In this document: piece after piece, positions 163 through 11,111 of the stretch
Position numbering within the stretch: the first letter of the stretch is position 1
Layout of the letters: every line of letters starts with the position of its first letter
Origin: Candidatus Firestoneibacteriota bacterium
Lineage (GTDB): Bacteria; Oederibacteriota; D2-FULL-39-29; JBDRBU01
DNA length: 11,202 nucleotides
Reading direction: 5' to 3'
Assembly: GCA_043822305.1 (NCBI GenBank)
Contig: JBDRBU010000071.1
Span: 1 to 11,202 of the forward strand
Program-made: the position numbers and the translations under genes
Notes under the pieces: generated by a model
Databases searched by the model: none
What the model saw: the letters and a program-made list of their open reading frames with translations, nothing else
Told to the model about the DNA's origin: nothing

Positions 163-642
163 TTAACTTTTTACTTCTTCATGAAGTAATTTTAAAAGAT
201 ATTCAACTTGGGCTAATTTCAGTACTTCCTCTTTTGTTGTACCAGTTTTTTTGCTTGCATTCAATTTCTGTTCTATGATTTCCTCTAAAACATCATCACT
301 TTCTGTTATTATGTTAATATATTTAACTCCAGTGAAATATTTCCTTACACCTTTCTCGTCTCTCTCAGACACTCTAATTGCCTCTGCAAAGATTTTTATG
401 GTATTATCAGAACTTGGAAAATAAATTTTCATCGTAATCTTATCCTTAACTTTTAAAGGTTCTTCTGTTATTAAAAGAGCGCCATCCCCACTCATATCTT
501 TTGTTTTTATATCATTAAATTTCTGAAAAATTTCTTTAAATTTGCCTAATTTCTCGTCTTTTAGAACTTTATATTTCACATCAAGTGAACACTGCCATCG
601 CGGGTACTTTCTCTTCTCTATTAACAGTTCTCCTCTTGTCAT
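163..642 (-). CDS. PilZ-domain protein (putative c-di-GMP receptor)
   Basis: 159 aa. RxxxR (RKYPR) and DxSxxG (DMSGDG) motifs in PilZ order, beta-rich core, C-terminal helical tail. Confidence 0.85.
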   Translation of the reverse strand: MTRGELLIEKRKYPRWQCSLDVKYKVLKDEKLGKFKEIFQKFNDIKTKDMSGDGALLITEEPLKVKDKITMKIYFPSSDNTIKIFAEAIRVSERDEKGVRKYFTGVKYINIITESDDVLEEIIEQKLNASKKTGTTKEEVLKLAQVEYLLKLLHEEVKS

Positions 643-659
643 AGATTTACTATCCTAAT

Positions 660-697
660 ATAGTTGCCCAATTCATTGGGCATAAAACCTGATGAAT
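660..697 (+). repeat. REP-like palindrome plus truncated partner
   Basis: ATAGT-TGCCCAAT(665-672)-TC-ATTGGGCA(675-682), followed by CCTGATGAAT (688-697), which looks like the start of an inverted partner. Confidence 0.6.
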
Positions 698-700
698 GGA

Positions 701-728
701 GTCGGGGTCGTCCCTGACCCCGACATAC
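701..728 (-). repeat. GC-rich REP-like hairpin
   Basis: Perfect 9-bp stem GTCGGGGTC (701-709) / GACCCCGAC (716-724) with a 6-nt loop. GTAT at its foot on the minus strand; no U-tract. Confidence 0.6.
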
Positions 729-743
729 ATTATATTTCACATC

Positions 744-2096
744 TCAAAAATTCATCTTTACTACTGTCTCTATATGATATGTATTTGGGAACATATCTAT
801 TGGTTGAATCTCATTTATTTTGTAACCTTCTTTAATTAGAACTTCAATGTCTCTGGCCAGAGTGGCTATATCACATGACACATATATTATATTACTTATA
901 TTCAATTTCTTTAAATTCAAAAGAATTTCATAACTCACACCATTTCGTGGTGGGTCCAATATTACTGTATCAATATTTAACTTTTCTTTCATTAATTTTA
1001 CTAAAATATTTTCTGCTTTTCCGCATAAAAACTTACAATTTGTAATATTATTTATTTTTGCATTATTTTTCGCATCAGAAATTGCTTCCCTTACTTCATC
1101 TAGGCCAATAACTTCTTTAAACAAATCAGCAACAAATAATGATATTGTCCCAACTCCACAATATAAATCTAAGGCTAGACTGTTCTTATCGCCTTTTATA
1201 TAACTCTTAATTAATCTATACAAAGTTAAAGTTTGTTCTGTATTGGTTTGAAAGAAAGAAAGCGGAGAAAAGTTATATTCTATCCCATCTAAAACTTCTT
1301 TTAATATACCCTCCCCATAAACTTTAACTGTTCTATCACCCAAAATTACATTTGTTTCCTCTTCATTAATATTACATAAAATTGAAATATATGGAAACTT
1401 CTGTCTAACATATTCTATAACACTTCTTACACTTTCTAAATCTTCGTTTTTTAAAACAAAAATTACAAATAAATTATCTCTTGTTTCACTTCCTCTAATC
1501 ACCAGATGCCTTAAGGTTGGTATATTAAAATTAACCTTCTCTAAAAATTTCTTTATCTCTTTATAAACATCATTTATGCTTTTTAAAATCAAATGACAGT
1601 CTTCAAGATTTATTACATAATGGCTTCTTAAAGCATAAAGCCCAATCTTCCTTTTTTGAATATCAACCGGAAATTGAGTTTTATTTCTATAATAAAAAGA
1701 TTTATTTGCCGGTATTATTGGATTTATGGTCACATCTTTCATATTAATAGTAGCCGCAGGCTTTAGCCTGCGTATTGTATTCTCAAGCAACAAGTTTTTA
1801 TATTCAAGTTGTTTTTTGTAATCAATATCCTGCCAGTGACATCCGCCACACTCTCCAAAACTAGGACATTTTGGTTTAATTCTAAACTTTGAAGGGTTTA
1901 GTACTGATAAAAGTTTTCCTCTGGCAAAATTTTTTCTAACTTCTGTAATTAAAACTTTTACTTCATCTTCCGGGACAACATATGGAATAAACACAACAAA
2001 ATTATCAATCTTGCCTATTCCATCAGGGCTATTGGCTAATGCCTCTATTTTTAATATAACATTATCTCCAACTTTTATAGGTTGACTCATCTTCAA
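744..2096 (-). CDS. rlmD: 23S rRNA (uracil-C5)-methyltransferase, RlmD/RumA family
   Basis: N-terminal TRAM domain, Fe-S motif CPSFGECGGC, YRNK, SFFQTN, SAM motif DLYCGVG, DPPR, catalytic YVSC, DMFPNTYHIE. True start may be the ATG at 2090. Confidence 0.93.
   Translation of the reverse strand: MKMSQPIKVGDNVILKIEALANSPDGIGKIDNFVVFIPYVVPEDEVKVLITEVRKNFARGKLLSVLNPSKFRIKPKCPSFGECGGCHWQDIDYKKQLEYKNLLLENTIRRLKPAATINMKDVTINPIIPANKSFYYRNKTQFPVDIQKRKIGLYALRSHYVINLEDCHLILKSINDVYKEIKKFLEKVNFNIPTLRHLVIRGSETRDNLFVIFVLKNEDLESVRSVIEYVRQKFPYISILCNINEEETNVILGDRTVKVYGEGILKEVLDGIEYNFSPLSFFQTNTEQTLTLYRLIKSYIKGDKNSLALDLYCGVGTISLFVADLFKEVIGLDEVREAISDAKNNAKINNITNCKFLCGKAENILVKLMKEKLNIDTVILDPPRNGVSYEILLNLKKLNISNIIYVSCDIATLARDIEVLIKEGYKINEIQPIDMFPNTYHIETVVKMNF
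1750..1776 (+). repeat. GTAG-family REP element inside rlmD
   Basis: GTAGCCGCAGGCTTTAGCCTGCGTATT; stem CGCAGGC/GCCTGCG; 26/27 identical to 2129-2155. Confidence 0.85.
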
Positions 2097-2128
2097 TTTT
2101 GTTTCTTTCTTTTTGTTTCTTTCTTTTT

Positions 2129-2155
2129 GTAGTCGCAGGCTTTAGCCTGCGTATT
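2129..2155 (+). repeat. GTAG-family REP element (intergenic, gatB-rlmD)
   Basis: GTAGTCGCAGGCTTTAGCCTGCGTATT, preceded by ~2.4 tandem copies of TTTTGTTTCTTTCT (2097-2130). Confidence 0.85.
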
Positions 2156-2161
2156 TATTTT

Positions 2162-3613
2162 TTACTTTATTTTCTCTTTCAGTATTTTATTCACTATCTG
2201 TGGATTAGCCAGCCCACCGGATGCCTTCATAACTTGCCCAATCAAATTTCCTATTGCTTTTTCTTTACCGCTTTTATACTCTTGGACTATTCCCGGATTA
2301 TCGCAAATAACTTTTTCTACTATTTCAGTTATAACTTTCTCATCGGTAATTTGAACTAATCCTTTTTTCTTTACTATTAACTCCGGATCTTCTCCGGTAG
2401 AGAACATCTCTTCAAATACCATTTTCGCAATCTTACTACTTATGACACCATCATCTATTAGTTTTATCAACTTCACTAATTTTCCGGGTCTAATTGGAGA
2501 TTGAGTTATCTCAATATTATTTAAATTAAGTAGTCCAGATAAATCAACCATAACAAAATTACTTATAGCCTTTGGTTTGTTGTAAAGCGAAACACATAAT
2601 TCAAAATAATCCGCAATATCTTTAAATGATGTTAATACCTTCGCATCGTATTCAGGTAAATTATACTCCTTAATAAATCTTTGTTCTCTAATTAAAGGCA
2701 ATTCTACCAGACTCTTTTTAATCTCTTCTATCATTTCTTTTGTTATATTTAAAGGCATAAGGTCGGGCTCCGGAAAATACCTGTAATCATGCGCTTCTTC
2801 CTTTGTTCTCATAGGATATGTAATACTTTCATCAGCATTCCAAAGTCTCGTTTCCTGAACCAACTTTTCACCATTTTTTAACGAATGAATCTGTCTAACT
2901 GATTCATACTCTAATGCTTTTTGAACATTCTTAAATGAATTTAGATTTTTAATCTCAATCTTTTCACCTAATTTATCTTCTCCTCTGACTCTAACTGAAA
3001 TATTAGCATCACATCTAAGTGTTCCTTTCTCCATATCACAATCAGAAACATCAATATACTGTAAAATACTTTTTAATGTCCCCAGATATTCATATGCTTC
3101 CTCTGGAGAACGGATATCCGGTTCTGAAACAATCTCAAGCAAAGGAATTCCAGTTCTATTTAAGTCTACTAAACTTTCTTCTGCCGTTCCAATTTGACCG
3201 GAAGCACTTATATGCACAAGTTTTCCCGCATCCTCTTCCAAATGTACTCTTTTTATTCTAATTCTCTTTTTAATACCATCAACTGTCCTATCAACATAAC
3301 CATTCAAAGATAAAGGCTTATCATACTGAGATATCTGATAGTTCTTTGGTAAATCCGGATAAAAATAGTTTTTTCTATCAAATTTGCTATACTCCTGAAT
3401 TTCACAGTTTAAGGCTAAGGCAGCTCTTAGAGCCAGTTCTATCGCTTTTTTATTTAAAACAGGCAAAACTCCAGGAAGCCCCAAACATACTGGACAGGTT
3501 TGAGAGTTTGGAGGAGAACCAAACTTAGTTGAACATCCGCAAAAAAGTTTTGATTCTGTCTTTAAGTGAACATGAACTTCTAAACCAATGACTATTTCAT
3601 ATTCTTCTGCCAT
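2162..3613 (-). CDS. gatB: Asp-tRNA(Asn)/Glu-tRNA(Gln) amidotransferase subunit B
   Basis: [75 protein letters not shown]-terminal YqeY-like domain. RBS AGGAGG upstream. Confidence 0.98.
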
Positions 3614-5175
3614 ACTTCCTCCTGTTTCAAATTAAAAACAGTAATCTCAATATTTTTGAAATAACTCAGGATATCTACTAACAAATTAAATCTACCTTCT
3701 TCATCTAAAATACCTTCTGAGAGTTTAATATGAGCAGCATCAACTATATCCTCATTAAAAGTCGGGTCCATGCCAATCCACTTTCCAACATAAACTTCTA
3801 TCCACATATGGTAATAAAACTTATCTTTCATAAGAACTAATCCACCACATACTTTAGTTGGCACTCCTACCGCTTTACACAAAGCACTGGCTAAAACAGA
3901 ATGCTCGGTACAATCACCTTCTTTCAATTCAAGTGTTTCTCTGGCAGAATTAAACCCGACACTAAAATTTTTATTCTTAACAAAATCATAAACCCAGTTT
4001 ATAATCTTTTTTGCTGCTTTAAAGGAATTCTTTTCTTCTCCAACAATTTTCTTTGCTGTTTCAATTATGCCCTTATCGCTTGACTGTTCATATAATGTTT
4101 CTTTTAAATATTTCTCATAATTTTTATCTAAGATTGGAATACTTATTGCCTGAGAATCATCAAATTTTTCTTTTTTTATAGAACATATTGCTGTCTTATC
4201 TTTTATAATATTAATACATGTTCTTTCTATATTTTCGCCAGAAAGATTTTTAGGAATTCCACTTTTAAAAAATATACTAACATTCAGACCAACTACATTT
4301 CTGGGGTCATCGACACTCCTGTTTGACTTAATAGCATATTCAGATATAATATCAACACTTCCCGAATATTCTTTTAACGCATCTTCTTTATTTGTTTTAA
4401 CCATAGTGATTCCTAATTGAGCAAATTCGGACTTTAAGGTATACCCTTTCTTATCAATATAATGAGTAGAAATAATACCTTTTAGTTCTGTCTCAACTAT
4501 AAAAAATTCTTTTCCATGACTTTCCATAGTGTAATTATAATATTTAGGAATGGTTGCATCCTTTGGCAGACCATCTTCTTTTCTTAATTCTTTCACATTT
4601 ATATTTATACTTTCAACCTTCATAGTATCTTTACTGAAAGTTTTGACTTTAAATCTGTCACCAACTTTGTACCCCTTTGTTCTTAAGTATTCATCAACAT
4701 TATCATCAAGTATAACATCTTTCTCGAAAGGTATCTCATATTCATTAGTTAAACCTGCTAATTTACTTTTGATATAAAGTTTTTTATTTTTTAATTTACC
4801 TTCAATCTCTCTATGACTTTCCCTAGTGTCCATAAAATGTTTAGGAATGGTTGCATTTTTTAGCAGACCATTTTGATTACCCATTGTTTCAATGTATTTA
4901 AAAAACAAAGGTGTTAAATCTTCTTTTAAATAGCAAGTAGAATCTGCTTTTAAATGAATATTGGCCTCAAACCGTTTCAAATTAATATCCATAAAAATAG
5001 TTTCTTTTAAACAACCTTGATTTTCATAATCAGATTTCTCAAGTCCATCATAACAGTAACCTATTTTAACATCTTCAATATAAACATTAAACCAATGAAC
5101 CAAAGGTAATTCATAACTAAATCCATTAATACAGCAAACAAAAATTATTAAAAAAATTATTGATATTTTTTTCAT
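3592..5175 (-). CDS. Exported transglutaminase-like (Cys-His-Asp) domain protein
   Basis: Signal peptide [20 protein letters not shown] from 5175 (alternative GTG start at 5187). Catalytic motifs [21 protein letters not shown]. Overlaps the gatB start by 22 bp. Confidence 0.88.
4516..4574. repeat. 59-bp intragenic repeat, copy 1
   Basis: 50/59 identical, ungapped, to 4813-4871. Encodes [19 protein letters not shown]. Confidence 0.9.
4813..4871. repeat. 59-bp intragenic repeat, copy 2
   Basis: Encodes [19 protein letters not shown]; 297 bp (99 codons) from copy 1, same frame. Confidence 0.9.
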
Positions 5176-5208
5176 TCCTTTTTTCACTTTCTTTACTTTA
5201 TTTGCTCG

Positions 5209-5247
5209 TGTCATTGCGAGGTCGCCTGAGGCGACCATGGCCATCTC
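5209..5247 (+). repeat. GTCATTGCGAG-type palindromic element
   Basis: TGTCATTGCGA-GGTCGCC-TGA-GGCGACC-ATGGCCATCTC with a 7-bp perfect stem. Lies within a 71-bp segment flanked by the 13-bp direct repeat CTTTCTTTACTTT (5187-5199, 5271-5283). Confidence 0.75.
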
Positions 5248-5306
5248 GTAGTTAACGGATTTCAGTGAACCTTTCTTTACTTTCTTTTCTTTTTTTACTA
5301 TTTTTA

Positions 5307-5382
5307 TGGAGCTGACGGTCGGATTTGAACCGACGACCTGCTGATTACGAATCAGCTGCTCTACCAACTGAGCTACATCAGC
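5307..5382 (-). tRNA. tRNA-Thr (anticodon CGT), 76 nt, encoded CCA
   Basis: GCTGATGTAGCTCAGTTGGTAGAGCAGCTGATTCGTAATCAGCAGGTCGTCGGTTCAAATCCGACCGTCAGCTCCA folds into a full cloverleaf: acceptor GCTGATG/CGTCAGC, anticodon stem GCTGA/TCAGC, T-loop TTCAAAT. Confidence 0.98.
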
Positions 5383-5393
5383 GTCTGATTAGT

Positions 5394-5422
5394 ATTGTAA
5401 CAAATTTAAAGCGTTTTATCAA
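5394..5422 (-). promoter_or_regulatory. sigma70-type promoter for the intact tRNA-Thr
   Basis: TTGATA (5422-5417), 17-bp spacer, TACAAT (5399-5394), with extended -10 TG. Confidence 0.8.
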
Positions 5423-5465
5423 TTTAATATCTAAACTATAAGCTAAAAATTGCCTTTAAGTTAAC

Positions 5466-5476
5466 CTGTCCAAATT
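5466..5476 (+). repeat. Arm-site-like motif near the left island end
   Basis: CTGTCCAAATT, 10/11 match to the tandem unit CTGTCCGAATT at 9178-9199. Confidence 0.5.
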
Positions 5477-5758
5477 TTATTTAAAAATTGACTGGGTTCA
5501 AAAACATATAAATCTGGCATTTTTCATTGTAATATAAAGACTTCACAATAAAAATAATAGAACAGATATTCCATTCAATTGAAAAAAATCAGATACTCTA
5601 ATTACATGAACTAACAGTGTATGTTTTTAACTTGCAAAAACAAGCTAAATATTAGTAATTGGATTAACTCATTGACTATCTGATTTAAAGTTAGGGGTTT
5701 TAAAAGATTTTTCTGACTTACTATTAAGAATTCATCCATAATTTATCTGTTCTAAAAA

Positions 5759-6037
5759 TTAAAAATTCGGGAATGGTATTTTAATAGAATCATTAATCTT
5801 TATTTCTGAATCAATAATATCTATTTTTTCCACATCACTAATTTCCTTAGAAAATATTCGTTTCAAATAGAAATTGTTTAGATTAATAATGGCTATTCCC
5901 TCTCCTCTTGTACCAATAATTAAATAGGGTCTTTTTATCTTTAATACAGTAGTCCAACTATACATATCTTTTGGATGGAATAGCGGTAACAGAGTACAGT
6001 AACCTTCTTTTTCATTTTCTTTTTCATATTCTCCACT
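5759..6037 (-). pseudogene. 5'-truncated gene fragment, beta-propeller-like C-terminus
   Basis: The frame stays open 24 codons upstream of the ATG at 5965, back to a TAA at 6038-6040. YLIIGTRGEGIAIINL resembles a propeller blade. GGAG (6031-6034) plus ATG (6027) is in a different frame. Confidence 0.45.
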
Positions 6038-6049
6038 TTAGTGCTTCAG

Positions 6050-6586
6050 TTACAAAATTAGTATACTATCAATTATTGCTTTATCTGCATATTTCGTGTA
6101 ATTATTACTATTTATATTTCCATAAATATTATTACTACTACATGAAATCCCAAAACTCATTTTTCCTTGTTTCTTAAAAATAGCAACAATACCTTCACCG
6201 TATACTATTTCTGGTACTCCATATACTTTTACTGCCTCTGCAAGTGTCGAACCTACGTGAATACCTTCTTTAGTCTTACATCTTGGACTTATTACTGTTA
6301 TCCTGTATATTTTTCCTTTGTCTTCTTCTAAATAAAATAATTTTTCACCTTTTTTTTCTTTAACAAATAAAATCGGGCATTTTTCCCCTTCAAGTTCTAT
6401 GGTGCTTTTTTCACAAATAAACCGTTTGGAAAGTATCTTTTCAGCTTCTTTTATATCTTTTCCTACCTTCACCCCTTCAATTGATGAATCACCAGGAATA
6501 ATATATTCTTTTTTGTCTGTATCGAAAGATTCGGTATTGCAACCGATAATGAACAATAGCACTAAAATCAATTTTATCTTGTTCAT
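6050..6586 (-). CDS. Lipoprotein of unknown function
   Basis: 178 aa. Signal peptide with lipobox-like IIGC. Two related motifs, IEGVKVG and KEGIHVG. GAGGA RBS upstream. Confidence 0.8.
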   Translation of the reverse strand: MNKIKLILVLLFIIGCNTESFDTDKKEYIIPGDSSIEGVKVGKDIKEAEKILSKRFICEKSTIELEGEKCPILFVKEKKGEKLFYLEEDKGKIYRITVISPRCKTKEGIHVGSTLAEAVKVYGVPEIVYGEGIVAIFKKQGKMSFGISCSSNNIYGNINSNNYTKYADKAIIDSILIL

Positions 6587-6602
6587 CTTTCATCCTCTTT
6601 AA

Positions 6603-6664
6603 ATCATACTATATTAATAGTTTTGTTAAAGAAAAAACAGAGTAAAAATGTCCGAATTCTGTCC
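6603..6664 (-). promoter_or_regulatory. Promoter-like block plus TGTCCGAATTCTGTCC repeat upstream of the 178-aa gene
   Basis: 6603-6630 is 22/28 identical to 9144-9171 (minus strand TTTAACAAA...TATGAT). 6649-6664 is identical to 9179-9194. Confidence 0.7.
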
Positions 6665-6670
6665 ATAGTT

Positions 6671-9124
6671 TTAATCGAATAACTTTAAAATATCCTCACA
6701 AAATCTCAGTTTAAGGTATTTTGCTCCCCTGAAAGCAGATGTGCTATAAAGCATCCAATAAATGCCCTCTTTATCTTGTGTTAAAAAATATTTACCAACC
6801 CAAAAAGTAGTAAGACGTTTGGGATTACTCCAAACAACTCCGTCATCCGAATAACATAAATAAATACTAGTTTTGTTATAAGAAATATAAATTTTGTCTT
6901 TATTATCACAAAAAACATTAAGACCATCATAGTAATCCGGTGGCTTACTACCACTGCGTCTATCCCATATAACCACCTTAGGTTCTGACCAGATTTTACC
7001 ATCTTTTGATGTGCTTACTTTAAGATATGTTATTTCATCACAGTAATTCTCTAAATCCCCTTTGACTTTTTTCTCTTTAGACCTCCATCTTTCAACCCAA
7101 GTGGCAAAAAAATTGCCTTTTGAATCTTGAGTAATTTTAACTGTATTCCAAGTCCTTCTTTCATATTCGTCATCTTTTGGTGGATCATAGATTATGTATT
7201 TTTCTGTAATATTTTTAAAGTCATTTGTATAACTTACGCTAAGAAGTTTTGCATTCGGATCGTGATGCGCAAGACAATACTTACCATTATTTAAGGGGAA
7301 AATACTGTAATCAAGATGCCCTTCTTTAAACATAATTGGTGTTGTCCAATCACGCATGTTATTGGTAACAGTAGTATAAACCCCAACCATATCGGAAGAT
7401 CTATACTCTGAAGATAAATGAACACTTGACCCTCTCTGAAAAACAAGGCATAAATCCTCTTTTACCTCATATAGTAATAAATGAAAATCATCATCAATAG
7501 AATTAAAAACCAGTCGTTCTGGTTGTTGCCATAATTTTTTGTTTTTAGTATCATTCCAGGAAATATATATATCTTTGTCTTTATCTTTTTCTTCCTGTGC
7601 CCAAAAAATAATATCTGGTTTGTCATTTATTCTATGTAAAATTTTCAAATCATATATCATCCCATCTGTTTTTGCTATCGTAACTGGTTCGCTCCAAACA
7701 CCATTTTTATCTTTGTCTTCTATAACATAATTTCTTTTTACTTCTTGATTTTTCCCAATCTCGATTTCTTCAACAATAGGTTTGAGTTTTAAGTTTGGAT
7801 CATCATCGGAATACGCGGTTATTTCTAATTTGTGCTTGCCTGCTGGTATACCGGATACAACAAATGGCGTTGATCTAAAAGGTTTATCATCCATCCAAAC
7901 ATCAGCTTCATCAGGAATTGAAGTAACATTCAGAGTTCCGCTATCCTCTGATATTGGTTTAAGTTTGAAAGATATATTCCATTCAAAGAGCAAAGAATTT
8001 TGCTCACTTATTTCTAAAATTATATTTTTCACACCTTCTAGCAATATACTTTCTCCTTCTTTTGTTGTTTTATCACTACTCTTATTTACTAAATTTATAA
8101 ATTGTTTTATTTCTTTACCAATCCTTCTCGGAAATGCAGGGAAACTCGTAAAATACATTTGGCTGTAGCAATACGGACTTTCAGGTTTATTGTTTTTGGC
8201 TGTTAATCTTGTTTTTAAACTCTCTATCGTATATCCTTTAGGCGATTTAAATACATATTTCCAAATTCTGGTGGAACTATTTTTAATATAAGGTTTTCCA
8301 TTCTCGTCCATTTTCCAACGGCCAAGGAAATAATAAAAAGCATTCTCGTATTTTGTGTTTTCACCGACTTTTTCTTCATAAAAAGGCTTTTGTTTGTTTA
8401 TTTCAATAATATGTGGGAACTGAGGAGTATTCACATCTTTTTCATATTGGCGCATATATAACTCGAGTAATTCGTATAATGACCTATCTTTATCACTATC
8501 AAATAAATAAGATACAGCCTTTTGATAATATTCCATTGCTCCTCTTTCATTCCCCATTTTTTTATGAAATTGTGCAATCTTGTATAATATTCGCCCTATT
8601 AATTTCCATTTCTCGTAAACCCTATCATCTTTCCTATTTTTTCTTACCATGTCATGAACTACATTTCCAGTTTGTGCAATTCCAATATCATTTTCCAGTT
8701 TTTTAAGTTGTTCCTTGCTTACCATTGATTCAAAGATATTCACAGTTTTTTCGTAAGCAGTAATTGCCTTTTTATAATCTTTTAATGCCTTTTCGTATAT
8801 TTCTCCTATCTCAATGCTTATATCAAAAAGCTGTTCCCTTTCAACAAGTCCTTCATTCGCCACTATTTCATTATATTCTTCAATTGCACTCGAATACTCT
8901 CCTCGGTAAAAATACATCTTACCAAGTAAATATTTTGAATCATAATATTTATCATTATTATTTTCAACTTGTTTCAGTTCCACAAGGGCTTCAGAATATT
9001 TTCCATCTTTAAAAAATTCCATTCCTCTGTCATAACGATAGGGATTATGGATTTTTTTAATTGCACAGGAAAAAGAAATAAAAATAACACATATCAAATA
9101 AAAAGATTTGAATTTTCTCCACAT
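6671..9124 (-). CDS. Lipoprotein with TPR repeats, PEGA domain and BNR/Asp-box (sialidase-fold) beta-propeller
   Basis: Signal peptide ending SFSC. TPR-like helices (YLLGKMYFYRGEYSSAIEEY; IGEIYEKALKDYKKAITAY). PEGA-like GTLNVTSIPDEADVWMDD..TPFVVSGIPAGKHKLEI. Asp-boxes SKDGKIW and SDDGVVW. Confidence 0.82.
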   Translation of the reverse strand: MWRKFKSFYLICVIFISFSCAIKKIHNPYRYDRGMEFFKDGKYSEALVELKQVENNNDKYYDSKYLLGKMYFYRGEYSSAIEEYNEIVANEGLVEREQLFDISIEIGEIYEKALKDYKKAITAYEKTVNIFESMVSKEQLKKLENDIGIAQTGNVVHDMVRKNRKDDRVYEKWKLIGRILYKIAQFHKKMGNERGAMEYYQKAVSYLFDSDKDRSLYELLELYMRQYEKDVNTPQFPHIIEINKQKPFYEEKVGENTKYENAFYYFLGRWKMDENGKPYIKNSSTRIWKYVFKSPKGYTIESLKTRLTAKNNKPESPYCYSQMYFTSFPAFPRRIGKEIKQFINLVNKSSDKTTKEGESILLEGVKNIILEISEQNSLLFEWNISFKLKPISEDSGTLNVTSIPDEADVWMDDKPFRSTPFVVSGIPAGKHKLEITAYSDDDPNLKLKPIVEEIEIGKNQEVKRNYVIEDKDKNGVWSEPVTIAKTDGMIYDLKILHRINDKPDIIFWAQEEKDKDKDIYISWNDTKNKKLWQQPERLVFNSIDDDFHLLLYEVKEDLCLVFQRGSSVHLSSEYRSSDMVGVYTTVTNNMRDWTTPIMFKEGHLDYSIFPLNNGKYCLAHHDPNAKLLSVSYTNDFKNITEKYIIYDPPKDDEYERRTWNTVKITQDSKGNFFATWVERWRSKEKKVKGDLENYCDEITYLKVSTSKDGKIWSEPKVVIWDRRSGSKPPDYYDGLNVFCDNKDKIYISYNKTSIYLCYSDDGVVWSNPKRLTTFWVGKYFLTQDKEGIYWMLYSTSAFRGAKYLKLRFCEDILKLFD

Positions 9125-9143
9125 TTTACATATCCCCTTTTTT

Positions 9144-9199
9144 ATTATACCATTATTATAGATTTGTTAAATAAAAACTGTCCGAATTCTGTCCGAATT
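9144..9199 (-). promoter_or_regulatory. Promoter-like block plus tandem 11-bp repeat upstream of the 817-aa gene
   Basis: Extended -10 TGGTATAAT (9152-9144). Perfect tandem CTGTCCGAATT x2 (9178-9188, 9189-9199). Confidence 0.72.
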
Positions 9200-9316
9200 T
9201 TCTGGTCAAAAGAGGTTAAATCTGATTAAGTCTGAAAAATACAGAATTCAGATTTTTCCTTACGTTATCAATACTTACTAGTAAAAATAAGAGGAGCATG
9301 TAATCCATTTTTTGTT

Positions 9317-9356
9317 TTACGAATCAGCTGCTCTACCAACTGAGCTACATCAGCGT
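9317..9356 (-). pseudogene. Displaced 5' half of tRNA-Thr (att junction)
   Basis: Identical to 5345-5384. The sequence diverges immediately after the anticodon loop TTCGTAA. Confidence 0.92.
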
Positions 9357-9362
9357 AGAAAT

Positions 9363-9391
9363 ATTATAGCAAATTTAAGTGGTTTTAGCAA
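9363..9391 (-). promoter_or_regulatory. sigma70-type promoter upstream of the tRNA fragment (probable native tRNA promoter)
   Basis: TTGCTA (9391-9386), 17-bp spacer, TATAAT (9368-9363), extended -10 TG. 23/29 identical to 5394-5422. Confidence 0.82.
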
Positions 9392-9477
9392 ACTAACTTT
9401 TTAAAATAGTTTTTAAAATAGAACAAAATAGAAAGAATGATGAAAAGTTTAAGAGGTTTAGAAGCAGGCTGTGGTGC

Positions 9478-9486
9478 TGTGGATAA
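9478..9486 (-). promoter_or_regulatory. Perfect DnaA box (TTATCCACA)
   Basis: TGTGGATAA on the + strand, intergenic; only one perfect copy seen. Confidence 0.35.
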
Positions 9487-9689
9487 CTTTGTAAAGGGGT
9501 GGGTCATTTTGATTACAAAAAATGGGACTTTTTACTTGCAATTTACACATGTTAGTAATATATACTGTGTTTTCTTTCTTGCTTTATATGTTTTTTTATC
9601 CTTTGGTTTATTTTGTTTACAACAGCAAAAGTTCTTAATAATAACAAATACAAGGTACTTTTTAGGACATCGGCAGTTGTCCCAAGTTT

Positions 9690-10817
9690 TTATTTTTTCT
9701 GTTTACCATCTGAAAACAGCAAACCATAATGTACATTACGGCCTTTGCCCGGAAGCTGATACAGTAACTTTTTTTCCAGCAAATCAGCAATCTCTCTAAA
9801 GGCCGTAGCCCGGCTGGTTTTTGTCAAACCGACATATTTACGGGTAGTCAGCCCGCCGGTAAACCCATTAGGGACGGCTTCAAGCATCCGGCTGATTACC
9901 TTTTTTTGCCTTGCATTAAGTTCTGATTGCGCATGTTTGTTCCAGAAATCCGACTTCATGAATACTCCGGCAATTATGTCTTGAGAACGTTCAATTGACG
10001 CTTTCAGGTTTTGAATGAACCATAAGAACCATGCTGTGGTATCCTTCCGACAGCACTGTACATCCTCCAGCACCTTATAATATGATTCCCTTGAACGCAT
10101 GATCTCCGAAGAAAGGCTGTAGTATCGCACATTAGTTTTCTCGTCCTGTGAAAGCGCCATGTCCGTGATAGCCCTTGCCAGTCGCCCGTTGCCGTCCTCA
10201 TAAGGATGAATGGTAAGGAACCTCAAATGCGACGCCGCCGCGCGCAAGACACCATCCATGCCGATCCGCGAGATTTTCCACCAATCAAGAAAAAGCGAAA
10301 TCTCATTTTTAAGGCATCCCACTGGAAGAGCTTCATAGTGAATCTTTTCCTTGCCAATAGGCCCCGACACAACGCGCATTGGCGCGCTTCCCCTGATTTT
10401 CCCCGTCTTTATTTTTCTAATGCCGGAATAACCGGAAGGAAACAAAGAAGCCTGCCAGCTGTTAATCCTTTTAAGGGTAAGTGGTTTATTATGAAACCGC
10501 ACGGCATCCAGAAGGACATCTACAAGACCGTCAACATTTCTATCATGAGGGCCGATACCGGCAGGCAATCCAAGCTTTACTGCCACGGACGAGCGGACGG
10601 CTTCAGCACTGAGTTTTTGTCCCTCGATCTCGGCGGTATGGACCGTTTCTTCGACCAGAACGGCTCCCTGTGCTTCAGTTTCCAGTTTCAGGTCCAAAGA
10701 AGCGACACGGCCGAGTAATTTTCCCTGTAACACTCTCAACTCGCTCAAAGGCCCAAGCAAAACAGAATCATCGTATTTAAAATCATACCAGTTTTTACGC
10801 GACCAGATATACTGCAT
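9690..10817 (-). CDS. Fic family protein with N-terminal DUF4172-like region and C-terminal winged HTH
   Basis: Fic motif HPYEDGNGRLAR; inhibitory-helix motif TAEIEG; N-terminus MQYIWSRKNW; C-terminal LTTRKYVGLTKTSRATAFREIADL. GGAG RBS. Confidence 0.93.
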   Translation of the reverse strand: MQYIWSRKNWYDFKYDDSVLLGPLSELRVLQGKLLGRVASLDLKLETEAQGAVLVEETVHTAEIEGQKLSAEAVRSSVAVKLGLPAGIGPHDRNVDGLVDVLLDAVRFHNKPLTLKRINSWQASLFPSGYSGIRKIKTGKIRGSAPMRVVSGPIGKEKIHYEALPVGCLKNEISLFLDWWKISRIGMDGVLRAAASHLRFLTIHPYEDGNGRLARAITDMALSQDEKTNVRYYSLSSEIMRSRESYYKVLEDVQCCRKDTTAWFLWFIQNLKASIERSQDIIAGVFMKSDFWNKHAQSELNARQKKVISRMLEAVPNGFTGGLTTRKYVGLTKTSRATAFREIADLLEKKLLYQLPGKGRNVHYGLLFSDGKQKK

Positions 10818-10832
10818 TCTAATCTTCTCCCG

Positions 10833-10901
10833 TGAAGCGATTACCCATTTAATCGCCTCATATTATGATACGATTATAGCATATAATCGCCCGACCGTCA
10901 A
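10833..10901 (-). promoter_or_regulatory. fic promoter with two palindromic operators
   Basis: TTGACG (10901-10896), 17-bp spacer, TATAAT (10878-10873). Inverted repeats TGAAGCGATTA/TAATCGCCTCA (10833-10860) and CGATTATA/TATAATCG (10871-10889). Confidence 0.8.
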
Positions 10902-11111
10902 GTATAAAACACAAAAAAATCTTTTGTTATCATAGATGGGTAACAGTATTGTATAATAGAGAAGGTGTAGATCCTCAAAGACGGAGTAAATTCCATAGTA
11001 AAAGCCGAGATTTATTCCATAGTGTTTATACCACATTTTAGAACTTATCTCAATGTTTTTCGATGAACAGAAATTGATCACCTCCTCTATTTTAAGATTT
11101 GATAACATCAT
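10863..11111 (-). CDS. Hypothetical protein, possibly a truncated remnant
   Basis: ATGA overlap with the upstream ORF stop. The 3' end runs through the fic promoter. No recognisable motif. Confidence 0.3.
   Translation of the reverse strand: MMLSNLKIEEVINFCSSKNIEISSKMWYKHYGINLGFYYGIYSVFEDLHLLYYTILLPIYDNKRFFCVLYLTVGRLYAIIVS

Follow-up and report, generated by a model that had tools for sequence, protein, structure and literature searches.

How did two unrelated putative lipoprotein genes come to stand behind the same short block of DNA? The question is raised by contig C71 (JBDRBU010000071.1 of assembly GCA_043822305.1, from a Candidatus Firestoneibacteriota bacterium), whose 11,202 nucleotides (nt) make up the whole stretch analysed here, hereafter the window. 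The assembly comprises 2.15 Mb in 125 contigs, with 31.6% G+C. A first-pass annotation of the window had seen in the block the site of an integron-like system to which promoter-carrying cassettes are added. With moderate confidence, we read the window instead as a stack of small, integrase-less islands at the gene for tRNA-Thr(CGU), the block being composed of arm-type integrase sites and the first inward promoter of the element. This is most likely a known way of building islands, not a new integron-like cassette system.

The block combines a 16-mer, TGTCCGAATTCTGTCC, with a promoter-like stretch. The 16-mer is found exactly at 6649–6664 and 9179–9194 (plus strand) and has no other copy in the assembly; two matches were reached in 0 of 200 dinucleotide-preserving shuffles. 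As the first-pass annotation had observed, the two copies are upstream of genes that seem unrelated: tblastn detects no similarity between cargo A, which encodes 178 amino acids (aa), and cargo B, which encodes 817 aa. Its description of a tight unit of about 2.53 kb also holds, the 16-mers being 2530 nt apart and the internal one ending just 6 nt short of where the 817-aa open reading frame (ORF) has its stop codon. So does that of a shared promoter-like segment, which is identical at 30 of 39 positions between copy A (6598–6636, minus strand; TTTAACAAA, 13 nt, TATGAT) and copy B (9139–9177, minus strand; TTTAACAAA, 13 nt, TATAAT, with TGG preceding), both resembling a promoter and ribosome-binding site. 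Everything that the two block copies share amounts to only about 75 nt.

The 16-mer is part of a tandem of 11-mers. At 9178–9199, CTGTCCGAATT occurs twice (on the minus strand, AATTCGGACAG twice), whereas the internal tandem (6648–6669; listed on the minus strand) reads ATGTCCGAATT, then CTGTCCATAGT. Between the copies, the promoter-like stretch is shifted relative to the 16-mer by exactly one 11-nt unit (spacings of 2541 and 2530 nt). A third, lone unit, CTGTCCAAATTTT, is located near the left end at 5464–5476, where it reads AAAATTTGGACAG on the minus strand; it lies 83–96 nt upstream of the tRNA 5′ end and shares 12 of its 13 positions with the right-arm unit AAAATTCGGACAG. The 16-mer is conserved at 100% and the adjoining 39 nt at 77%. 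Such perfect preservation beside 23% divergence fits a protein-binding site, arm site and operator alike. In a repeat scan, nothing within the block had an inverted partner; the units form a direct tandem and, as had been stated at the outset, not an attC-like palindrome.

The right-hand block copy stands close to a tRNA scar. The intact tRNA-Thr(CGU) gene occupies 5307–5382 (minus strand; called by ARAGORN, and by Rfam with 74.7 bits). An identity block at 5345–5383 (minus strand), which covers the attachment (att) core and tRNA positions 1–38, recurs exactly at 9317–9355 (blastn 38/38). This second copy is a displaced tRNA-Thr(CGU) 5′ half of 38–39 nt, on the same strand as the intact gene and upstream of it; ARAGORN and Rfam call no tRNA at 9317–9355. 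The identity block ends at the 3′ edge of the anticodon loop. Upstream of the displaced half, the sequence is 77% similar to the promoter region of the intact tRNA, so that the copy as a whole spans 9317–9396. The promoter of the intact tRNA, on its island side (5394–5422, minus strand), consists of TG, TTGATA, 17 nt and TACAAT; the displaced promoter (9363–9391, minus strand), which points into the island, consists of TG, TTGCTA, 17 nt and TATAAT. Each reaches 10/12 in the promoter scan, and these two tRNA upstream stretches (5422–5394 and 9391–9363) are its best matches in the region. Followed in the direction of the tRNA, the layout is a promoter with a 5′ half, 3.9 kb of other DNA, and a promoter with a whole tRNA, and is therefore the signature of an integration in the anticodon loop that brings in a replacement 5′ half and promoter. 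The half-gene duplication itself is observed directly.

In the displaced promoter, TTGCTAAAACC matches the tRNA-Thr upstream regions of relatives of family f2. The displaced promoter is closer to those regions than the current one is, which fits the displaced copy being the older. The displaced promoter points at gene B, so that an orphaned tRNA promoter may serve to transcribe island genes. In the acceptor stem of the intact tRNA-Thr there is a U6–G67 wobble pair, where position 67 is A and the pair Watson–Crick in 12 of 12 relatives; the wobble could be a trace of a hybrid origin of the gene.

The island is missing from the tRNA-Thr locus of relatives. The order tRNA-Thr, transglutaminase-like gene, GatB, RumA and PilZ is kept at 11 of 12 loci from relatives of the order and class, the twelfth being too short. 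Within the stretches examined, neither a second tRNA-Thr 5′ half nor the island genes are present at any of the 12. The window has two of the features of an Islander-type island (Hudson, Lau and Williams 2015, PMC4383910), namely an intact tRNA gene (tDNA) with a co-oriented 5′ fragment upstream (9317–9354, 38 nt exact) and a segment that relatives lack at a locus whose downstream neighbours they keep (11 of 12). It does not have another, a tyrosine integrase inside the island, as no PF00589 match was found on C71. Further along, a third tRNA-Thr 5′ half, degraded (34/36), is present at C19:3017–3052, on a contig that shares 141 exact nt with the right end of the window; past it come ordinary genes, encoding an M28 peptidase and RtcB. 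An IS21 copy (IstA, IstB) sits at the C71/C19 junction (C19:172–2314), inside the older island that carries a Fic gene.

The genome holds seven tRNA-fragment junctions in all, at tRNA-Thr, tRNA-Ser and tRNA-Arg genes. Besides the tRNA-Thr fragments described above, C102 carries three exact tRNA-Ser 5′ halves (the first 42–43 nt), 4.2 and 6.4 kb apart; C72 carries a tRNA-Arg(CCU) 5′ half; and C94 carries a Thr(CGU)-type 5′ half whose acceptor stem is unlike that of the genome's only tRNA-Thr(CGU). The C94 half precedes an island with HicAB and restriction–modification genes, and a GGACAC tandem follows 122 nt on. When the seven junctions were aligned from the crossover inward, a direct-repeat pair with an 11-nt period was found to start 118–122 nt past the anticodon loop in all seven. 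The repeats differ from element to element: GGACAG, GGACAC, GGTCACG/GGGCAA, TGACACA/TGTCAC, TTACACAG/TAGCAC, AGTCACA/GGTCAC and TGTTCC/TGTGCC. On the way to the pair, the aligned junctions share a proximal motif, GCTYCYCTTATTT, which has three matches in the genome, every one 17–20 nt past a tRNA-fragment crossover, and then a TTAATCAGATTT-like motif. In the window, the core-proximal right arm (9200–9316, minus strand) carries TTAATCAGATTT at 9218–9229 and GCTCCTCTTATTT at 9285–9297, and the tandem 11-mers at 9178–9199 (minus strand), putative arm-type integrase sites, lie 122 nt from the end of the anticodon loop. The pattern TTCGTAA-N(105–135)-GGACA-N6-GGACA has two matches, on C71 and C94, each 145 nt long, and this genome is the sole one to have it among 99 of the phylum.

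The left arms agree with this layout. In the four elements checked, a matching unit was present 66–96 nt upstream of the next 5′ half each time; the placement of the window's unit at 5464–5476 matches that of the units of three tRNA-Ser elements, and in one tRNA-Ser island the tandem block is found on both arms, identical over about 18 nt. Arm-type sites are characterized by the same short repeat recurring on each arm with a set spacing from the core. The architecture is conserved across the seven junctions.

Some further features of these loci were noted. At the C94 locus (289–470 and 14266–14880), HicAB is joined by several genes for DNA methyltransferases, one each for a restriction enzyme and a helicase, and one for a tyrosine recombinase of 204 aa that consists of the catalytic domain only; the intact partner tRNA of its 5′ half is not in the assembly. 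The tRNA-Ser(UGA) array (C9:18111–19330 and C102:18645–29350) has cargo that includes a TPR lipoprotein accompanied by a MORN protein, as well as a DUF5615 gene accompanied by a TOTE-type AEP primase-helicase. About 60 nt past the arm of the third tRNA-Ser fragment, C102:29540–29760 contains a tRNA-Arg(CCU)-like 3′ part (positions 15–72), followed by an arm that resembles that of the C72 tRNA-Arg junction; the arrangement is possibly nested, or like an attP. On C78, three tandem AAAATGTCC units (34582–34620) are separated by about 210 nt from a match resembling a tRNA (34830–34905), in an orientation that looks opposite to that of the junction arms.

For the tRNA-Ser array, an integrase is at hand. 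A 362-aa tyrosine integrase (Phage_integrase, E 6e-43) is encoded on C9, 46 nt upstream of the intact tRNA-Ser(UGA) and on the same strand. Its first 70 residues match Arm-DNA-bind_2 (PF12167) with an E value of 8.6e-5 and 22.9 bits, barely over the cut-off of 22. Of the phylum's 99 genomes, 38 encode homologues. At the best 30 homologue loci, a co-oriented tRNA directly past the 3′ end of the integrase gene was found 12 times, an opposite-strand tRNA 7 times and none in the stretch 11 times; leaving aside the genome's own C9 integrase, the ten closest homologues show the co-oriented layout in 9 cases. At these loci (L402–L430) it is the tRNA 5′ end that faces the integrase 3′ end in 12 and the tRNA 3′ end in 7, so that either side of a tRNA gene seems to be open to this family.

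From these observations, we propose the following history of the window. A heterobivalent tyrosine integrase, crossing over in the anticodon loop, would insert islands at tRNA-Thr(CGU). The elements would carry the tRNA 5′ half and its promoter, unlike the common case, and each integration would therefore rebuild the tRNA and push the old half and promoter upstream; the intact tRNA-Thr would have received its 5′ half from the island and kept the chromosomal 3′ half. The CTGTCCGAATT units would be arm-type integrase-binding sites, two by the displaced fragment and one by the rebuilt tRNA, and the 39-nt homologous stretch would provide the element type's first inward promoter and ribosome-binding region. 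The second, internal set of arm units and promoter would be explained if island 1 arose from two related islets in tandem that became fused, one with gene B and the other with gene A. As the simplest history, the weld was probably made by a deletion of about 250 nt between directly repeated arm units, from the left-arm unit of the B islet to the right-arm pair of the A islet, which would have removed the intervening tRNA fragment along with the core-proximal arm. The internal copy at 6648–6669 is probably this weld. The older second island would carry the Fic/DUF4172 gene and extend to the degraded third 5′ half on the adjoining contig C19. Integrase binding of the units, activity of the promoters and the islet-fusing deletion are the parts of this history that we infer.

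Several findings weigh against it. Contig C71 encodes no integrase of any kind, and none was found for the tRNA-Thr islands; binding of the units is therefore proposed by analogy only. Beside the internal copy there is no tRNA fragment or proximal arm motif, which makes the fusion by deletion a reconstruction, no unfused intermediate having been seen. The left arm has one unit only, with one mismatch, and the Thr-type arm occurs in 0 of the 98 other genomes of the phylum. The link from C71 to C19 depends on a 141-nt end overlap beside an IS21 copy. Promoter-like matches in the region number 22, against 21.9 in shuffles, and in both copies promoter-like hexamers come right after the tandem, the position in which an activator would bind. 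Among the five annotated long public loci with the same 16-mer, an integrase is present within 4 kb in one (prophage L177), and the other four are ordinary chromosomal intergenic contexts.

More broadly, the exact 16-mer occurs in at least 118 genome stretches and at least 121 metagenome stretches among public contigs, across all phyla, which is about the number estimated for chance. Among the matches listed, none has the promoter-like stretch beside the 16-mer, and a few AT-rich stretches carry extra units. In prophage L177, two units follow the stop codon of the integrase gene and three more come 130 nt on, before the terminase and portal genes; this integrase is 24% identical to that of C9. 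A tRNA-like core was considered in L177 and dropped, since Rfam finds no tRNA there. The gapped pattern of Thr loop and GGACA gave 116 stretches in viral contigs, a chance level, and in one of them it follows a tRNA that is complete, not a fragment.

These public contexts bear on an alternative in which a transcription factor (a response regulator of the winged-helix type, say, that recognizes direct repeats spaced by one helical turn) has its operator in the tandem 11-mers and co-regulates both lipoprotein genes, the duplicated regulatory region having nothing to do with integration. An 11-nt period directly upstream of promoter-like hexamers in both copies would suit such a site, as would a homology that continues through the ribosome-binding site, a 16-mer better kept than its flanks, and the four of five annotated public loci that are intergenic, chromosomal and without integrase, some with extra units. 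An operator would not, however, be expected to sit exactly 122 nt from an anticodon-loop scar, as the right-hand copy does and likewise the C94 pair, nor would it account for the five other junctions, at which different repeats lie 118–121 nt from the scar (122 nt at Ser3) regardless of which gene comes next. Within the genome there are two sites only, both in one tRNA-bounded island, plus the single unit by the tRNA; Pfam finds no regulator gene in the window, and the promoter-like hexamers that would complete the arrangement occur at shuffle frequency. A block found upstream of many ordinary genes would have spoken for a regulon and against cassettes. In the assembly, two matches, both in the window, are all that exist for the tandem block, and likewise for the pattern TTTAACAAA-N13-TATRAT; nor is the block enriched elsewhere in the order, 11 further genomes yielding 10 near-matches to it and 20 to the reversed control pattern. 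Being confined to two places, it is therefore no regulon box in this genome. We regard the operator reading, taken as a replacement for integration, as unlikely.

It is also conceivable that the right-hand copy is an arm site and the internal one a plain segmental duplication, or the product of illegitimate recombination, before gene A, with no former boundary inside the island. The lack of any tRNA fragment or core-proximal arm motif next to the internal copy, and a shared length of only about 75 nt, would be natural on such an account. The 23% difference in the promoter part and the register shift of one unit nonetheless look like diverged relatives rather than a recent local copy, and gene B is intact and ends 6 nt from the units, as expected if these were the left arm of its own islet; we consider duplication quite improbable. 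For recombination at the 16-mer itself, by which promoter-bearing cassettes would be inserted and excised, the appeal lies in the 2.53-kb unit of promoter and gene B between exact direct 16-mers, the internal one abutting a stop codon. Against this stand the mere two copies in the genome, a site that is a direct tandem without palindrome, a contig without recombinase and, elsewhere in the genome, five PF00589 matches of which the two proteins tested, not of Xer size, score far below the NCBIfam integron-integrase cut-offs. The site is moreover placed relative to a tRNA crossover, as at six other junctions, and the comparison with the 11 genomes of the order gives no excess over the control. 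An integron-like system is very hard to reconcile with these findings. From the first-pass annotation, the idea of accretion survives in that foreign gene modules were added at one site; recombination at the 16-mer is not supported, the scar being the tRNA-Thr anticodon loop. The alternative that it named, collapsed tandem islands of one family, is the one that the evidence favours.

Stacked tRNA-Thr islands, our preferred reading, and a regulatory role of the units may go together. Given the chromosomal contexts of the public 16-mers and the missing Thr-type integrase, there is room for an operator role, which may coexist with the arm role. A more far-reaching version, to which we give little credence, would have single-gene islets, each with a head of arm units, promoter and ribosome-binding site, stacked at the tRNA by an integrase that replaces its 5′ half and then welded into islands of several genes through deletions between neighbours' directly repeated arm units, with arm units doubling as operators. 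If it were true, occupancy of the arm units by integrase or excisionase would set the expression of the first cargo gene, and the locus would be a functional integron analogue built on tRNA att machinery.

The remaining features of the window can be placed around this stack. All of its larger genes are on the minus strand. Left of the tRNA, the PilZ protein, RumA-like methyltransferase, GatB and transglutaminase-like lipoprotein genes follow one another in that order (163–5175, minus strand). Between the lone unit and cargo A is a gene-poor stretch (5477–6049, minus strand) with a 68-aa ORF (5759–5965; 92 aa from stop to stop). The suggestion that this cargo is a decayed fragment is plausible; neither the ORF nor the longer remnant frame has a Pfam or NCBIfam match. 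Cargo A (6050–6586, minus strand), a 178-aa putative lipoprotein, had no match in Pfam and NCBIfam searches; a homologue in the relative G010, with 73% nucleotide identity, is in a different context and without the shared block. Cargo B (6671–9124, minus strand), an 817-aa putative lipoprotein, has TPR-, PEGA- and BNR-like regions (Pfam). It aligns with a paralogue on contig C70 as far as residue 816 of 817 and is therefore not truncated; at the C70 locus there is no tRNA-fragment junction comparable to that of the window. The N termini of both cargo proteins, read by eye from the sequence, are lipoprotein-type signal peptides with a terminal Cys (MNKIKLILVLLFIIGC and MWRKFKSFYLICVIFISFSC).

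The Fic/DUF4172 gene (9690–10817, minus strand; Pfam) is the cargo of the older second island, and around it, between the two tRNA fragments, G+C rises to 43–49% from about 31%. The ORFs at 9437–9799 and 10863–11111 have no Pfam or NCBIfam match, and in 5000–9800 the tRNA-Thr is the sole match of Rfam. Short G+C-rich intergenic hairpins are present at 701–724, 1751–1775, 2131–2153 and 5218–5238, two of them near-identical (GCAGGCTTTAGCCTGCGTA); on this AT-rich contig, they resemble repetitive extragenic palindromic (REP)-type repeats.

Read as a stack of tRNA-Thr islands, what appeared to be a new cassette system becomes a readable example of tRNA-linked island growth, in the less frequent form in which a tRNA has both its 5′ half and its promoter replaced, in a little-studied, AT-rich and uncultured lineage. 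The att architecture obtained from the seven junctions consists of the core, a proximal motif and, some 120 nt on, a pair of arm units. It could help to mark out islets without an integrase, which standard island finders, built to require one, throw away. In addition, the cargo, here lipoproteins, defence systems and toxin–antitoxin genes, may be driven by displaced tRNA promoters and by those adjacent to the arms.

Arm-type sites are short direct repeats, specific to each element, that are found on both arms at fixed distances from the core and are read by the N-terminal arm-binding domain of heterobivalent tyrosine integrases; those of lambda are P1, P2 and P′1–3. Compared with the lambda sites, the role of the window's units rests on analogy, the cognate Thr-type integrase being missing, and one pair of units abuts a promoter-like stretch. 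Integrons, with IntI, attI and attC cassettes, likewise add gene-sized modules successively at one locus. Unlike them, the window has neither IntI nor an attC-like imperfect palindrome, its modules own a promoter-like region, and the scar is a tRNA anticodon loop. In streptococci, cis-mobilizable elements (CIMEs) are bounded by att sites, are without recombination genes of their own and stand in tandem with related elements at the attachment sites that integrative and conjugative elements (ICEs) use; a related incoming element mobilizes them. The window islands are CIME-like in being att-bounded without recombination or transfer genes, and differ in having no conjugation or mobilization context.

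Stacking at a single tRNA also has a parallel in the tycheposons of Prochlorococcus, for which the preprint's account (Hackl et al., bioRxiv 10.1101/2020.12.28.424599) is that, with each successive integration at a tRNA, older elements are displaced further in, while partial tRNAs and degenerate remnants stay scattered through the island. As far as that account goes, the islands share with the window the stacking and the adaptive or defence modules carried as cargo, and the window differs in belonging to another phylum and, as far as tested, another integrase family. A close general frame is the Islander catalogue (PMC4383910), which gives 2083 islands with anticodon-centred sites and 125 tandem arrays, and records a 5′ tDNA fragment for 159 of its 3919 islands, the type seen in the window being a minority there. 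Its integrase filter would reject the window islands because they have no integrase, and, as a further difference, island 1 of the window appears as two welded islets. What the window has in common with them is an intact tDNA with a co-oriented end fragment upstream, a crossover in the anticodon loop, tandem arrays, and a restoring sequence borne by the island itself.

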